A DNA stretch of 64,000 nt from an uncultured Eubacteriales bacterium (GTDB lineage Bacteria > Bacillota > Clostridia > Oscillospirales > Acutalibacteraceae): positions 14,396-78,395 of the forward strand of contig CAYJER010000005.1 in the NCBI GenBank assembly GCA_964369225.1, written 5' to 3'. Every line of letters starts with the position of its first letter. Position 1 is the stretch's first letter. Positions 2,670 through 52,048 of this stretch are shown piece after piece. The position numbers were made by a program, and so were the translations under genes. The notes under the pieces were generated by a model. That model ran no database searches and was not told the DNA's origin. It saw only the letters and a list, made by a program, of their open reading frames with translations.

Positions 2670-4889
2670 ATGGCGAGAAGAAAAACCGAAAAAAAGAGCA
2701 ACCCAAAGGCAATAATTAGCGGAGCTGGAATTGTCTTAGAACAAGATATTAACGATACACTGCGTGACAACTTCATGCCATACGCCATGAGTGTTATATA
2801 TTCACGTGCAATCCCTGAAATTGACGGCTTTAAGCCATCTCACAGAAAATTATTGTACACCATGTACAAAATGGGTTTATTAGGAAATCAAAGAACCAAA
2901 AGTGCAAATATTGTCGGACAAACCATGAAACTTAATCCTCATGGCGACTCTGCAATTTACGAAACTATGGTAAGGCTTAGCCGTGGCTATGAGGCTTTAC
3001 TTCACCCTTATGTAGACTCAAAGGGTAATTTTGGTAAATTTTATTCACGTGATATGGCATGTGCTGCCTCAAGATATACCGAGGCAAAACTTGACTCATT
3101 ATGCAAAGAACTTTTCAAAGACATTGACAAAGACACAGTAGACTTTGTAGACAACTATGACAATACAATGAAAGAGCCTAGCCTACTTCCAGCTACATTT
3201 CCAAGTGTGCTTGTAAATGCAAACACAGGAATTGCAGTTGGAATGGCAAGTTCTATCTGTCCATTTAACCTAACAGAAATTTGCGAGACAACAATTGCAA
3301 TTATGCGTGATGAAAATGCAGATGTTTTAAACACTCTGCAAGCGCCTGACTTCCCTGGCGGTGGATTTATCATCTATGATCAAAAGGCAATTGAGCAAAT
3401 TTATTCTACTGGTAGAGGTAGTATAAAACTCCGTTGTAAATATAGCTTTGATAAATCTGCAAACTGTATAGATATAACAGAAATTCCGCCTACTACAAAT
3501 TCAGAAGTTATAGTAGAAAAGGTTGTAGACCTTGTAAAAACAGGCAAGATTAAAGATATTTCAGATATAAGAGACGAAACAGGACTTGCAGGACTTAAAC
3601 TTACTATAGACCTTAAAAGAGGTGTAGACCCTGACAAGCTTATGCAAAGGCTATACAAACTTACAACTTTAGAAGATACATTCTCTTGCAACTTTAATGT
3701 ACTTGTAGCTGGTGCTCCACGAGTTTTAGGCGTAAAAGCACTCTTAGAAGAGTGGATTGCCTTTAGAATTGAATGTGTTAGAAGAAGAACGCATTTTGAC
3801 CTTACAAAGAAAAAAGATAAACTTCACCTATTATTAGGTCTTAAAGAAATTCTTTTAGACATCGACAAGGCTATAAAAATAGTTAGAGAGACCAAAGAAG
3901 AATCTGAAGTTATACCAAACCTTATGATAGGTTTTGGAATTGACGAAATTCAAGCAGATTATGTCGCTGAAATTAAACTTCGTAATCTTAACAGAGAATT
4001 TATCCTAAAAAGAATTGACGAGATTGACAGTCTAAAAAAAGAGATAGACAATCTTGAAAGTATTCTAAAATCAAAGACAAAAGTTAAAAATATAATTATT
4101 AAAGAGTTAAACGAGGTAGCCAAAAATTACGGTAAGCCTAGACGCAGTATGCTTGTATTTGCAGATGAACTAGAAGAAGATATTGTAGTAGAGGAAATTC
4201 CTGACTACCCTGTAAACCTATTCTTTTCAAAAGAGGGATACTTTAAAAAGATTACACCTCAATCATTAAGAATGAGTTCAGAACATAAATTAAAGGAAGA
4301 AGACGAGATAATCTTACAATTAGAGTCAAGCAACGCAACAGATTTACTCTTCTTCTCACAAAAATCACAGGTCTACAAGTCAAGAGTATCAGAGTTTGCA
4401 GACACAAAGGCATCAGTTTTAGGTGACTATGTTCCAGCAAAACTTCAAATGGAAGACGGAGAAACCGCAATTCAGATGACTGTAACAAAGGACTACAGCG
4501 GATTTATGATATTTGTGTTTGAGAATGGAAAGGTAGCAAAAGTAGAGCTTTCAGCGTATCAAACTAAGACAAACAGAAAAAAACTGCTAAATGCCTATAA
4601 TGCTAACAGTGCTATTGTATCAATTATCCACATGACAGAAGACTCAAAGCTTCTTTTGACAGCCTCATCGGGCAGAATGTTAATTTTTAGCACAGATTTA
4701 ATAGCAACTAAAACCACAAAAAACACACAAGGAGTAGCTGCAATGACACTTAAAAAAGGACATAGAGTAATTTCGGCTACTGTCTATGAAAACGGAACTT
4801 TCTCAAACGAAAACCGATTTAATAAAAAGATCCCAGCCACAGGCGCCCTGCCAAACGGACAAGAAACAGCCTCACAAACTATGCTATAA
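2670..4889 (+). CDS. parC: Type IIA topoisomerase subunit A, most likely topoisomerase IV ParC
   Basis: 739 aa. Motifs GFKPSHRKLLY and the catalytic Tyr context AASRYTEAKL. The C-terminal domain is short and has no QRRGGKG GyrA box. Confidence 0.8.
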   Translation: MARRKTEKKSNPKAIISGAGIVLEQDINDTLRDNFMPYAMSVIYSRAIPEIDGFKPSHRKLLYTMYKMGLLGNQRTKSANIVGQTMKLNPHGDSAIYETMVRLSRGYEALLHPYVDSKGNFGKFYSRDMACAASRYTEAKLDSLCKELFKDIDKDTVDFVDNYDNTMKEPSLLPATFPSVLVNANTGIAVGMASSICPFNLTEICETTIAIMRDENADVLNTLQAPDFPGGGFIIYDQKAIEQIYSTGRGSIKLRCKYSFDKSANCIDITEIPPTTNSEVIVEKVVDLVKTGKIKDISDIRDETGLAGLKLTIDLKRGVDPDKLMQRLYKLTTLEDTFSCNFNVLVAGAPRVLGVKALLEEWIAFRIECVRRRTHFDLTKKKDKLHLLLGLKEILLDIDKAIKIVRETKEESEVIPNLMIGFGIDEIQADYVAEIKLRNLNREFILKRIDEIDSLKKEIDNLESILKSKTKVKNIIIKELNEVAKNYGKPRRSMLVFADELEEDIVVEEIPDYPVNLFFSKEGYFKKITPQSLRMSSEHKLKEEDEIILQLESSNATDLLFFSQKSQVYKSRVSEFADTKASVLGDYVPAKLQMEDGETAIQMTVTKDYSGFMIFVFENGKVAKVELSAYQTKTNRKKLLNAYNANSAIVSIIHMTEDSKLLLTASSGRMLIFSTDLIATKTTKNTQGVAAMTLKKGHRVISATVYENGTFSNENRFNKKIPATGALPNGQETASQTML

Positions 4890-4919: not shown

Positions 4920-4995
4920 TGTAGGGGCGACCTTTGGTCGTCTTAAGGTTTGCAATAACTTCTAGTTTCGGGCGGTCACACAGGACCGCCCCTAC
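4920..4995. repeat. REPIN-like inverted doublet (stem classes GCGACCTTTGGTCGTC and GCGGTCCTGTGTGACCGC)
   Basis: TGTAGGGG head at 4920 and CCCCTAC tail ending at 4995. The loop is homologous to the loops of other copies (reverse complement GAAACTAGAAGTTATTGCAAACC). Confidence 0.75.
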
Positions 4996-5030
4996 TATTT
5001 TGTAAACTTCAAAGCTTAATATTTTAACCA

Positions 5031-5109
5031 TGTAGGGGACGGGTTTTCCGTCCCGAAAAACTAGCGGTTTTAGCTAAATTCCCACGGGACGGAAAACCCG
5101 TCCCCTACA
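5031..5109. repeat. REPIN-like element, class I (79 nt), with 25-bp perfect inverted arms TGTAGGGGACGGGTTTTCCGTCCCG
   Basis: Arms lie at 5031-5055 and 5085-5109 around a loop GAAAAACTAGCGGTTTTAGCTAAATTCCCAC. Near-identical 79-nt copies lie at 25730-25808 and 45861-45939, and a degenerate copy at 43182-43259. Confidence 0.9.
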
Positions 5110-25630: not shown

Positions 25631-25857
25631 TGTAGGGGCTGGTCATTAGCCATGTAGGGGCGGATACAGAGACCAGACGTGCCTCTTGCAATTTTTGATT
25701 TAAATAAATTCGGTAAAACGCACAATTAATGTAGGGGACGGGTTTTCCGTCCCGTGGTAATTTATCTAAAATCTCTAGTTTTTCGGGACGGAAAACCCGT
25801 CCCCTACATGGCTAAATTTTCCTAATAGGCAGGTCTTGGCAGAGACCCTCCCCTACA
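25631..25857. repeat. Nested REP-like composite element inserted between two tail genes
   Basis: Outer arms lie at 25653-25689 and 25828-25857 (class GGTCT..AGAC). A conserved AT-rich linker follows, then an inner class I REPIN at 25730-25808 whose arms are identical to 5031-5109. Confidence 0.85.
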
Positions 25858-43154: not shown

Positions 43155-43181
43155 ACAAATTTGTTAAAACTGACAAATTAA

Positions 43182-43259
43182 TGTAGGGGACAGGTTTTCC
43201 GTCCCGTTGAATTTTAGCAATAACTGCCAGTTTTCGTGATGGAAAACCCATCCCCTACA
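43182..43259. repeat. Degenerate class I REPIN-like element
   Basis: TGTAGGGGACAGGTTTTCCGTCCCG...GATGGAAAACCCATCCCCTACA, with a loop homologous to the other copies. Confidence 0.8.
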
Positions 43260-45744: not shown

Positions 45745-45983
45745 TGTAGGGAAAGGGAACTTAAGCTAACTTAATGCTTATTTGTAGGGGAGGATCTGAG
45801 TGCAGACGTGTTGATTACGTTTTTTGATTAAAAATTAATTCGTTAAAACGCACAAATTAATGTAGGGGACGGGTTTTCCGTCCCGTGGGAATTTAGCTAA
45901 AACCTCTAGTTTTTCGGGACGGAAAACCCGTCCCCTACATTGGTTTCGTTGCTAAGAGGCACGTCTGGTCTCCGTGCCCTACA
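45745..45983. repeat. Nested REP-like composite element
   Basis: The outer arm TGTAGGGGAGGATCTGAGTGCAGACGTG starts at 45783. The inner class I REPIN is at 45861-45939. The diverged outer right arm ends in CCCTACA at 45983. An extra TGTAGGG head is at 45745. Confidence 0.85.
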
Positions 45984-48667: not shown

Positions 48668-48673
48668 TCAATC

Positions 48674-48740
48674 TTAGTGAAGAGGTAATAGTGAAGAGTG
48701 AAAAGTTGATGTGAAAATCCTTGCGGATTTTTTGATTAAA
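48674..48740 (+). repeat. Stop-codon-rich terminator cassette repeat, copy 4 of 4
   Basis: TTAGTGAAGAGGTAATAGTGAAGAGTGAAAAGTTGATGTGAAAATCCTTGCGGATTTTTTGATTAAA. It starts 7 nt after the stop of the co-oriented membrane protein gene. Confidence 0.8.
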
Positions 48741-48791
48741 GGCTTTTAAATTGAAATTTTTGTATGAATAAAAATAAATTTGATTAAACAT

Positions 48792-48917
48792 TGTAGGGGC
48801 GGATATTATCCGCCTATGAAACTTAGGCAAAATCACCAGATTTTTAGGCGGATAATATCCGCCCCTACATGGCTAAATTTGCTAAGAGGCACGTCTGCAC
48901 TCAGACCCTCCCCTACA
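48792..48917. repeat. REPIN-like element class II (GCGGATATTATCCGC stems) plus an outer right arm of the nested composite
   Basis: Perfect arms at 48792-48815 and 48846-48869. The outer arm GAGGCACGTCTGCACTCAGACCCTCCCCTACA ends at 48917. Confidence 0.85.
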
Positions 48918-50569: not shown

Positions 50570-51886
50570 TTACCCTTTCTCATACCTTTGCATAAAGTCT
50601 GTATAATAATCTCCGTTTTGGAAGTCTTTTTCTCTTATTATCTCAATTTGTTTTTCAATATTATTAGGAGCGCCGTCTAATACAATCTCACATAAAGCGG
50701 ATTGCATTTTTCTTACTGCCTCTTCCCTATTAGACGAAAATACAATAAGCTTACCTAACATTGAATCATAGTAAGGAGGAATGTCATATCCTTGATACAG
50801 TGCTGTATCAAATCTAACCCATGGGCCAGACGGCACATGCAGGAACTTAACACTCCCTACGGCTGTAGCATTAATTCTGCATTCAATTGCAGCTCCTCTA
50901 ATTCTAATGTCCTCTTGCTTAAAGCTTAGAGGAACCTCGGCAGCAATTCTAATTTGCCATTTAACTATATCTCTGCCTGAAACTAACTCTGATACAGGGT
51001 GTTCAACCTGTAGTCTTGTGTTCATCTCCATAAAATAGAAGTTTTGATCTTTATCCATAAGATACTCAATAGTGCCAGCATTTACATAGTTTACTGCCTT
51101 AGCGGCTTTTCTTGAGCTTTCCATTAACTTTTCACGAGTTTCGGCACTCATTAAATGTGATGGACTCTCTTCTATAAGCTTTTGGTTATTCTTTTGGATA
51201 GAACATTCTCTTTCACCTAGGCAAACCACATTGCCTTGCTTATCACAAAGAAGTTGCACTTCTATATGCTTTGCTGGGAAAAGGTATTTCTCCATATACA
51301 TTCTACCGTCACCGAAAGCCTTTTCAGCCTCACTAGAAGCAGTTTTATAAGCAAGCTCTATTTCATCTTTTGACTTAACAAGCCTAATACCCTTACCACC
51401 GCCGCCAGCGCTAGCTTTAAGCATTACAGGGTATCCAATTTTTTCAGCTTGAATTATAGCGTCATTAGCATCTACTAGAATTTCAGTTCCTGGAATAATA
51501 GGAACTCCACTTTCTTTCATTAGTTGTCTAGCAGCGTCTTTGTCACCCATTTTAGAAATTATTTCTGAACTAGGGCCAATAAAAACAATTCCATTTTCTT
51601 CGCACATGGCAGCAAATTCTTGATTTTCCGCTAAAAATCCATAGCCTGGGTGAATAGCCTGTGCTTTTGTAGCCAAGGCAGCTGTAATTATTCTCTCTTT
51701 ATTTAAGTAACTGTCTTTAGCTTGAGCAGGACCTATACAAATAGCCTGATCAGCTAAAGCTACATGCAAACTGTCTTTGTCTGCCTTTGAGTAGACAGCA
51801 ACAGTAGAAATTCCCATTTCTTTACAAGCTCTAATAACCCTTATGGCAATTTCTCCTCTGTTTGCAATAAGTATTTTATTAAACAT
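50570..51886 (-). CDS. accC: Biotin carboxylase
   Basis: 438 aa counted from ATG 51886 (MFNKILIANRGEIA). The track start at 51967 lies inside a REPIN repeat and is rejected. Confidence 0.9.
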   Translation of the reverse strand: MFNKILIANRGEIAIRVIRACKEMGISTVAVYSKADKDSLHVALADQAICIGPAQAKDSYLNKERIITAALATKAQAIHPGYGFLAENQEFAAMCEENGIVFIGPSSEIISKMGDKDAARQLMKESGVPIIPGTEILVDANDAIIQAEKIGYPVMLKASAGGGGKGIRLVKSKDEIELAYKTASSEAEKAFGDGRMYMEKYLFPAKHIEVQLLCDKQGNVVCLGERECSIQKNNQKLIEESPSHLMSAETREKLMESSRKAAKAVNYVNAGTIEYLMDKDQNFYFMEMNTRLQVEHPVSELVSGRDIVKWQIRIAAEVPLSFKQEDIRIRGAAIECRINATAVGSVKFLHVPSGPWVRFDTALYQGYDIPPYYDSMLGKLIVFSSNREEAVRKMQSALCEIVLDGAPNNIEKQIEIIREKDFQNGDYYTDFMQRYEKG

Positions 51887-51966
51887 ATATAAACCTACTT
51901 TCAGACAGCGAATCTGTCTAAATTTATTTATTTTGTATTTTTTATGGTGTTGATTAGAAAAAACCA

Positions 51967-52048
51967 TGTAGGGGCGAACCTATGTGTTCGCCCAAAAACT
52001 AGCAGTTATTGCTAAACCCACGGGCGAACACATAGGTTCGCCCCTACA
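51967..52048. repeat. REPIN-like element class III (GCGAACCTATGTGTTCGC stems) inside the acc/fab operon
   Basis: Perfect 27-nt inverted arms TGTAGGGGCGAACCTATGTGTTCGCCC, with the loop AAAAACTAGCAGTTATTGCTAAACCCAC. Confidence 0.9.

Follow-up and report, generated by a model that had tools for sequence, protein, structure and literature searches.

The element at positions 5031-5109 is best read as a REPIN-type doublet belonging to a multi-class, RAYT-linked family of REP sequences in which classes A and B serve almost entirely as the core of a carrier element, here named Z, and a probability of roughly 0.7 is given to this reading. Classes A and B are indeed found almost exclusively in the middle of Z, which is non-coding and measures 162-163 nt. 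The insertions of Z fall on the dyad of REP hairpins already present and produce an 11-bp duplication, seen as flanking direct repeats. The element has been recently active and has moved between species.

The doublet lies in a stretch of 64,000 nt, called the window below, that corresponds to positions 14396-78395 of contig C5 of a draft genome (2.62 Mb, 35% GC, 159 contigs, with repeats at contig ends). A Spo0A match of 243.7 bits, over the curated cut-off of 200, identifies the organism as an endospore-forming Firmicute.

REP doublets in the window and in the genome

The original prediction had described eight loci of the window as carrying inverted doublets with palindromic GC-rich arms, and all eight were recovered with the architecture of REPINs (Table 1). 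The window contains the word TGTAGGGG 22 times, where shuffles give an expectation of 0.72, and it has 7 instances of the framed pattern TGTAGGGG-N40-70-CCCCTACA, for which none is expected, with starts at 442, 5031, 25730, 43182, 45861, 48792 and 51967. The eighth doublet of the window, 4920-4996, has CCCCTACT as its right end. When folded as single-stranded DNA, 5031-5109 forms a 25-bp hairpin of -33.7 kcal/mol (z = -9.6). Its flanks are short, linker-like on both sides and resemble the short arm of Z, without Z ends, and the left flank of 4920-4996 resembles the linker termed X. The two doublets together form a BIME-like cluster downstream of an ORF (2670-4889) whose top match is to topoisomerase/gyrase A-subunit families, below cut-offs.

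Table 1. REP-containing loci of the window and RAYT genes of the genome (window positions, unless a contig is given)
Feature	Location	Parts	Context
REP cluster	380-534	single short class C REP 381-402; X linker 423-442; heterotypic doublet 442-521 (class J arm GGGACGGCGTCCTCGACGTCCC and class A arm); additional CCCCTACA head 527-534	
Heterotypic REP doublet	4920-4996	left arm short class C (GCGACCTTTGGTCGTC); right arm class G (GGGCGGTCACACAGGACCGCCC)	
Class B REPIN	5031-5109	left REP TGTAG-GGGACGG-GTTTT-CCGTCCC 5031-5054; spacer 5055-5085 (31 nt); inverted right REP 5086-5109	
Nested composite	25631-25857	outer half-REPs 25653-25674 and 25837-25857; 162-nt Z 25675-25836 with degenerate right end; class B REPIN inside, 25730-25808	
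X linker, then degenerate class B REPIN	43161-43182, 43182-43259		between a tRNA gene and the start of ORF 43323
Nested composite	45783-45983	class F REP split at tip, 45783-45803 and 45967-45983; 163-nt Z 45804-45966	
Partial Z with REPIN	48792-48917	class A REPIN 48792-48869; Z short arm; right Z end 48883-48896; outer class F half-REP 48897-48917	
Class E REPIN	51967-52048	GGGCGAAC-CTATGT-GTTCGCCC	between two co-directional genes
RAYT gene L001	C7:59284-59778	class E REP upstream; class E REPIN downstream	just after rpoD
RAYT gene L004	C7:55613-56170	class A arrays on both sides	between a dGTPase gene and dnaG
RAYT gene L002	C58	in-frame class C REP pair, ~180 nt apart, bracketing the HUH codons	
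RAYT gene L003	C9	in-frame class I REP pair bracketing the HUH codons	
Truncated RAYT pseudogene	C4	in-frame class H REP pair bracketing the HUH codons	

Each arm follows one plan, with GTAG followed by a GC-rich hairpin that has GG(G)...(C)CC at its base, and the tops of the hairpins fall into discrete self-complementary classes. The five stem classes that had been listed from the window are real and self-complementary, and at least ten exist in the genome. Intact hairpins with a GTAG head, made of GTAG(G) and stems of 6-9 bp, number about 800 genome-wide. Class A, GGCGGATA-T-TATCCGCC, has ~270 copies and class B, GGGACGG-GTTTT-CCGTCCC, ~210. Class C, GGGCGACC-CTGTGT-GGTCGCCC, follows with ~74 copies and its short form with ~69, then class D (GGAACGGTC-TTG-GACCGTTCC, ~66), class F (GGGAGGG-TCTCTGTG-CCCTCCC, ~39) and class E (GGGCGAAC-CTATGT-GTTCGCCC, ~24). 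Classes G, I and J have 15-19 copies each and class H a single intact copy.

Homotypic doublets dominate (96 A/A, 67 B/B, 26 C/C, 14 F/F, 8 D/D and 4 E/E), and doublets with mixed arms are a minority in which C/G pairs recur across the genome. The claim of a loop better conserved than the stems stands between classes, where the ~30-nt spacer can be aligned as GAAAA(A)CTAG.G.TTWT.GCTAAA... and the hairpin tops have nothing in common, but it is reversed within a class, where conservation per position is at least 90% in the arms and only 40-90% in the spacer. A spacer common to all classes may indicate that the doublets belong to one lineage in which the hairpin tops were replaced. An origin of the spacer inside the RAYT gene was considered and rejected, the sequence between the internal REPs having no convincing similarity to it. 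The three 79-nt copies, which are those of class B, do have identical arms and occur in both orientations. The loop at 45861 differs from that at 5031 by 1 nt as anticipated, and the loop at 25730 by 4 nt and not by about 6.

The family extends well beyond the window, and a genome-wide census, which had been proposed as a check, excluded a local duplication of the repeats. GTAGGGG occurs 1072 times across the 2.6 Mb, against ~91 expected, and TGTAGGGG/CCCCTACA is the sole GC-rich word among the top 40 8-mers of the genome. Doublets of the form GTAGGG-N45-85-CCCTAC number 289, with lengths mostly of 75-80 nt and a peak at 76-77 nt. They are extragenic in 287 of 289 cases, in a genome that is ~86% coding. 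According to a crude ORF-based gene map, they are enriched in convergent gaps (24% vs 12% of gaps) and depleted in divergent ones (6.5% vs 13% of gaps).

These properties are those of the GTAG-tagged REP super-family, defined as GC-rich palindromes of 20-40 bp with GTAG at one foot and many copies, which are mainly extragenic and prefer co-directional and convergent gaps (Di Nocera 2013). Both the palindrome with its GTAG foot in many copies and the extragenic placement were found here. In parallel, the doublets have the inverted REPs, short spacer and single long hairpin that characterize REPINs (Bertels & Rainey 2011). A search of Rfam at gathering thresholds, also among the proposed checks, returned three tRNAs and nothing else. 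At lax thresholds it returned only sub-threshold hairpin models of microRNA precursors, which were read as generic hairpin matches and set aside. No named family for these repeats was found in Rfam or in the literature searched.

RAYT genes and their cognate hairpin classes

Profile searches with PF01797 and NF047646 together with tblastn detected four intact Y1-HUH RAYT genes and a truncated fifth one (Table 1), which bears out the proposal that GTAG-headed repeats of this kind should be accompanied by RAYTs. L001 scored 81.5 bits on NF047646 (NCBIfam 'REP-associated tyrosine transposase'; cut-off 80), and this was also the best family for L002, L003 and L004, with scores under the cut-off. 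The only match among PDB sequences was 4ER8, the E. coli TnpA-REP. PNH[VI]H and YID[TN]N are present in all four intact proteins, and IWQ in three of them, with LWQ in L004. Judged from these motifs, the enzymes fit subclass 2.4 of Quentin et al. 2018, equivalent to Group 4 of Bertels et al. 2017. By analogy with characterized TnpA-REP proteins, the REP family would be the substrate family of these HUH-tyrosine enzymes.

Every RAYT lineage is matched with a hairpin class of its own, which surrounds the gene as REPINs or lies within it as a pair, in frame and on either side of the HUH motif. Two of the genes are flanked by REPs of classes A and E, and three have an internal pair, of classes C, I and, in the pseudogene, H. 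The internal pair of L002 is translated as VGATLCGRP and GDHTGSPLQ. In-frame REPs of this type, a mark of subclass 2.4, are thus present in L002, L003 and the pseudogene. The class E REPIN of the window at 51967-52048 belongs to the class that flanks L001, a gene situated outside the window.

The association holds in other genomes. An in-frame internal pair was found at the same place in 57 of 79 homologous RAYT loci, and the pairs of genus mates belong to classes E, I, H, short C and J or are B-like and F-like. In a maximum-likelihood tree, the RAYT clades follow the hairpin class. The class I clade, supported at 100/99, contains L003, and the class E clade is sister to L001. The nearest relatives of these RAYTs come from assemblies of Oscillospiraceae, Acutalibacteraceae and other Clostridia. 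Among 41 related genomes (the genome studied and 40 relatives), doublets were found in 9 of the 16 that are RAYT-positive and in 0 of the 25 that are RAYT-negative (Fisher p ~3e-5, computed by hand). Doublets with these heads number 243 in the genome studied and 0-43 in the relatives, and their distribution is patchy among sister species.

The original reading of 5031-5109 as part of a REP/REPIN family with its RAYT held for the family, which is genome-wide and has cognate RAYTs for several of its classes. No cognate gene for classes B, D, F and G was found in the assembly, a 159-contig draft that may hide genes, and a tblastn of all RAYTs against the genome gave no gene beyond the truncated fifth copy, which belongs to another class than B. 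A pattern search of 301 genomes of the order found no class B pair at the in-gene spacing. B-like, D and F pairs are present in RAYT genes of other Clostridia.

The carrier element Z and its insertion sites

The flanks of the doublets are not random and are conserved over ~45 nt on each side. They consist of a short linker, GCAAATTTAGCCAT, on one side and a long one, ...AATTCGTTAAAACGCACAAATTAAT, on the other, and the orientation of the linkers relative to the spacer is fixed (57 vs 12). Further outwards lie inverted ends of the form AGACGTG followed by CCTCTTAGC or TTGATTACG ... CACGTCT. Z is thus laid out as an inverted end, a short arm, a REPIN, a long arm and a second inverted end, and it is non-coding. 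There are 71 complete copies of 160-165 nt, mostly of 162-163 nt, and ~300 Z ends lead into a REP through a short or a long arm. All of the 375 Z ends examined either continue into a REP or are chance matches. Shorter forms of 109-114 nt contain a 'double-foot' REP, a collapsed doublet. Being short, non-coding and multi-copy, with terminal inverted repeats and a target-site duplication, Z shows the usual features of a MITE. An autonomous partner with the same ends, which a MITE should also have, was not found in the assembly.

Out of 278 doublets whose context could be assessed, 68 lie in a complete Z, 105 have one Z end, 64 have a linker only and 41 are naked. Doublets located in Z or its remnants thus amount to 237/278 (85%). 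Naked doublets account for 1/61 in class B, 8/94 in class A and 13/14 in class F.

It could be argued that mobility lies in the doublets of 76-80 nt alone, with the RAYTs of the genome copying them, and that their conserved flanks reflect a strong preference for a single site within a dispersed element that was there before. The class-matched RAYT genes, the co-occurrence of doublets and RAYTs across genomes and the 41 naked doublets, including nearly all those of class F, speak for this explanation. So do the identical doublets, of which up to 7 exist per class, and the heterotypic doublets, which indicate that arms recombine. Nevertheless, no Z without a REP inside was seen among the copies inspected, and the X linker leads to a GTAG head in 219/266 cases, the remainder being mostly degenerate heads. 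The fixed orientation of linkers relative to the spacer also stands against it, as does the joint divergence of spacer and linkers that separates the A and B subfamilies. Finally, no cognate RAYT was found for class B in the assembly and no class B pair at the in-gene spacing in the 301 genomes, and the only footprints of transposition seen are those of Z. This explanation is considered unlikely. The recent spread suggested for the 79-nt copies is not shown to be RAYT-driven transposition of REPINs, and 237 of the 278 doublets lie in Z or its remnants.

The footprint consists of 11-bp direct repeats (at least 9/11 identical) that flank Z in 25/70 copies and in 0/70 controls. Flanks were inverted in 8/70 copies and neither direct nor inverted in 37/70. 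The register is specific to 11 nt, with no direct repeats at 8, 10 or 13 nt and 2/70 at 9 and 12 nt. The duplicated 11-mers are tips of REP hairpins of classes F, A, H, B and E and of a class J-like hairpin, GGATGGCGTCC. Class F is the commonest target. The loops of the target hairpins vary from 1 to 8 nt and the duplication is of 11 bp throughout, which speaks for a stagger of fixed length around the palindrome centre and against a cut positioned by the structure. With asymmetric loops such as GGATTCCATA and GGAAAACCCG, the flanking repeats are direct and not inverted.

Z elements were also found within the REP arms of other Z elements, and this accounts for the nested composites 25631-25857 and 45783-45983. 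In the first, the 11-nt flanks of Z (25675-25836) are ATACAGAGACC and TGGCAGAGACC, with an identity of 8/11. In the second, Z (45804-45966) reads as the end AGACGTGTTGATTACG, a long arm with the X linker, the class B REPIN 45861-45939, a short arm and the end GCTAAGAGGCACGTCT. Its 11-nt flanks also agree at 8/11, and the whole composite folds at -54.8 kcal/mol (z -9.9). At 48792-48917 the left part of Z is absent, and convergent genes lie on either side. Since every insertion of Z brings two fresh REP hairpins as new targets, nesting of hairpin in hairpin follows.

Recent movement is seen in two places. In the class H RAYT gene (C4), the internal REP on the right has been split by a Z that is 100% identical to another Z located at a different target. 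A near-identical Z of 163 nt was found inside a class F REP of another species (G003), which shares only 64-73% identity in coding DNA with the genome studied, and the class B doublet of this copy equals a variant present in the genome studied. The identical pair at two targets and the copy of the second species together establish that Z was recently active and crossed species. Because coding DNA in the genus is just 64-73% identical, intergenic regions are not comparable for orthologous empty sites.

The enzyme that moves Z was sought in several ways. The RAYTs were the only transposase-like genes found in the genome, and a search for PF01609 (DDE_Tnp_1) gave no match. Pairs of Z ends at most 4 kb apart were considered as a longer element and rejected, as they enclose ordinary genes, and long multi-copy sequences proved to be surface-protein genes and not insertion sequences. 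Z had no match in plasmid and phage collections, and its 16-mer end gave 25 matches in JGI metagenome contigs, all by chance. Draft metagenome-type assemblies typically lose multi-copy insertion sequences and plasmids. As a draft of 159 contigs with repeats at its contig ends readily misses multi-copy insertion sequences, the absence of a gene is weak evidence here.

A very unlikely explanation is that RAYTs move Z without a separate transposase, a Group 4 HUH enzyme nicking the two strands of a palindromic REP at staggered positions, which would lead to the duplication. It draws on the lack of other transposase-like genes among those found and on the fact that Z always carries REPs and always lands in them. 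In addition, both Z ends finish with CT, the cutting dinucleotide of the E. coli TnpA-REP (PMC8266576). The duplication of 11 bp whatever the size of the loop, which implies a fixed stagger, argues against it, and the missing gene may simply have been lost, as insertion sequences and plasmids typically are in such assemblies. HUH Y1 transposition as in IS608 and ISDra2 leaves no duplication, and no HUH Y1 enzyme is known to make a fixed-stagger footprint of direct repeats.

The preferred reading, in which 5031-5109 is a member of a RAYT-linked REP family whose classes A and B travel in Z, would work in two layers. By analogy with the TnpA-REP enzymes of E. coli, Stenotrophomonas and Marinomonas, a RAYT would bind a folded single-stranded REP with its 5' GTAG, cut it and rejoin it nearby. 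Its action may seed, diversify and maintain the primary REPs and doublets, with the arms under selection (PMC8266576). RAYT-driven transposition of REPINs has been shown in vivo in no organism (PMC8266576), and the RAYT step is for this reason one that we infer. On top of this layer, classes A and B would have been amplified mainly as cargo of Z, which is probably moved in trans by a transposase with a fixed stagger. A further reading, held to be quite unlikely, is that Z is a self-propagating, target-carrying element. It would land only in REP tips and deliver a REPIN each time, thereby multiplying its own landing sites and building nested palindromes. In the boldest form of this reading, Z is moved by the Group 4 RAYTs themselves, which would reveal a new, duplication-making mode for HUH Y1 enzymes.

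That the hairpins are primarily regulatory parts of the host (terminators, mRNA stabilisers or small RNA) and not mobile DNA is highly improbable: they are extragenic, enriched at gene 3' ends and very stable, and such side roles are reported for REPs elsewhere (PMC3733652), but no T-run follows the hairpin, both orientations occur, no Rfam family scores over threshold, some copies lie upstream of genes or inside a RAYT gene, the distribution in sister species is patchy (0-243 copies) and insertion footprints exist.

Relation to known systems and significance

GTAG REPs, REPINs and subclass 2.4 RAYTs with in-gene REPs are all published kinds. The closest relatives are the REPtrons of subclass 2.4 TnpA-REP (Quentin, Siguier, Chandler & Fichant 2018; PMC6006769). 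The resemblance concerns the protein motifs, NH[IFV]H, WQ and the YIxNNP type there and PNH[VIF]H, WQ and YID[TN]N here. It extends to the long GC-footed REPs, with GTAG and three basal G-C pairs, to the double-foot REPs, to the in-frame REPs within the gene and to the several divergent copies per genome. However, the published subclass is mainly from Cyanobacteria and Bacteroidetes, its in-gene REPs generally lie between HUH and Y whereas those described here flank HUH, and the carrier element is described only here. Group 4 was found to be weakly linked to repeats, with only ~14 copies of flanking 16-mers (Bertels et al. 2017), against ~800 REPs in the present genome.

The Group 3 REPINs of P. 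fluorescens (PMC3116915) are likewise inverted doublets of ~70-110 nt that form a long hairpin and are extragenic in their hundreds, with several classes per genome, each with its own RAYT in that organism. They belong to a different RAYT group and phylum, have no shared spacer, unlike the classes studied here with their homologous spacer and flanks, and are reported to be vertical, while the present ones are patchy with near-identical copies in two species.

The REPs and BIMEs of E. coli share the GTAG-tagged hairpin and the organization in inverted REP pairs joined by a conserved linker, and single-stranded recognition, a feature of the E. coli TnpA-REP (4ER8), may apply here by analogy. In E. 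coli the stems are bulged, there is one RAYT and one REPtron, and the RAYT is flanked by REPs and contains none. The conserved linker of inverted REP pairs in E. coli BIME-1 is the L motif.

Other elements that target REPs are the insertion sequences IS1397 and ISKpn1, in the loops of enterobacterial REPs, and ISPpu9 and ISPpu10, in REPs of Pseudomonas putida. They are autonomous and make short duplications or none. Z shares with them the insertion at the tip or centre of REP palindromes and differs in being a non-coding element of 162 nt that makes an 11-bp duplication and brings its own REPIN targets. We know of no description of a REP-targeting, REPIN-carrying element with an 11-bp duplication, of which the ingredients are known. 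The literature search found no paper describing these Clostridia repeats. Firmicutes are not listed in the published survey of GTAG REPs. The family represents an element of known kind, from a group of hosts in which it is little documented, and what is new is the arrangement with a carrier.

REPIN-RAYT systems have been studied almost only in Proteobacteria and are held to be vertically inherited, long-lived intragenomic replicators. The present genome provides a dense example from uncultured gut-type Clostridia, with ~290 doublets in 2.6 Mb and at least ten classes, and its RAYTs are of a group that had been regarded as having little connection with abundant repeats. Judging from the clear insertion footprints, a large share of the amplification goes through a carrier with REP hairpins as its targets. 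The family would, if the observations are confirmed, offer a natural system in which the specificity classes of RAYTs can be compared side by side. Moreover, Z would represent a second route by which REPINs spread, also between species, and the number of REPINs in a genome could then not simply be read as a measure of RAYT activity.

A RAYT gene interrupted by a REPIN carrier

The source genome holds four intact RAYT (TnpA-REP) genes and a fifth, truncated copy on contig C4 (see table). In this copy, a 162-nt Z element, the non-coding carrier with inverted ends, bears a class B REPIN and splits the right internal REP, which is of class H. An 11-mer is present at both flanks of the insertion, GGATTCCATAC and GGATTCCATAT, with a 10/11 match, and the gene is devoid of its C-terminal half. 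It is a case of the repeat system wrecking one of its presumed enzymes.

Coordinates of the RAYT loci, the REPIN-adjoining reading frame and the separate repeat
Feature	Location	Strand	Content or order
Truncated fifth RAYT gene	C4:45600-46100, outside the window	minus
dnaG-rpoD region	C7:54338-61239, outside the window		dGTPase - class A REP array - RAYT L004 - class A REP array - dnaG - rpoD - class E REP - RAYT L001 - class E REPIN - Rrf2 regulator
Open reading frame at the class E REPIN	window 50570-51967	minus
Predicted start ATG of this frame (CAT)	window 51965-51967	minus	CAT lies immediately ahead of the class E REPIN's GTAG head
Distinct repeat, ~118 nt	window 48673-48790		stops in every frame, followed by hairpin AAAATCCTTGCGGATTTT and a T-run

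Coding sequences and repeats around REPs and Z

The dnaG-rpoD operon carries a RAYT gene on either side. Upstream of one of them, L004, lies a second copy of about 75 nt that include the ribosome-binding site and the opening codons of dnaG, so that L004 reads as a fusion borrowing the dnaG start (LALPEHFLQEQK...). In the window, an open reading frame has its predicted start codon directly at a class E REPIN; the real start is probably more internal, or else the REPIN flank provides it.

The ~118-nt repeat of the window often adjoins the long arm of Z in the source genome and is present in many copies in the genus mate G011. The latter is devoid of doublets of the TGTAGGGG...CCCCTACA type, yet its RAYT has an internal REP pair. 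In another genus mate, G007, the doublets are fixed heterotypic pairs that associate a class E-like arm and a class G-like arm around a spacer of their own, and a shorter derivative with one collapsed arm was also found. Spacers appear to be genome-specific, yet class-independent.

Internal and flanking REPs

Among the RAYT loci of other genomes (L005-L084 and L085-L120), homologues lacking the internal pair, that is, two cognate REPs in frame bracketing the HUH motif, were observed in Pasteurellaceae, Bacteroidota, Chloroflexota and Myxococcota. These homologues form one clade nested among the pair-bearing RAYTs of Clostridia. In the source genome, the internal pair is absent from exactly the two REPIN-flanked genes, L001 and L004, both of which sit on long branches. 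The internal and flanking arrangements of REPs may be alternatives to each other.
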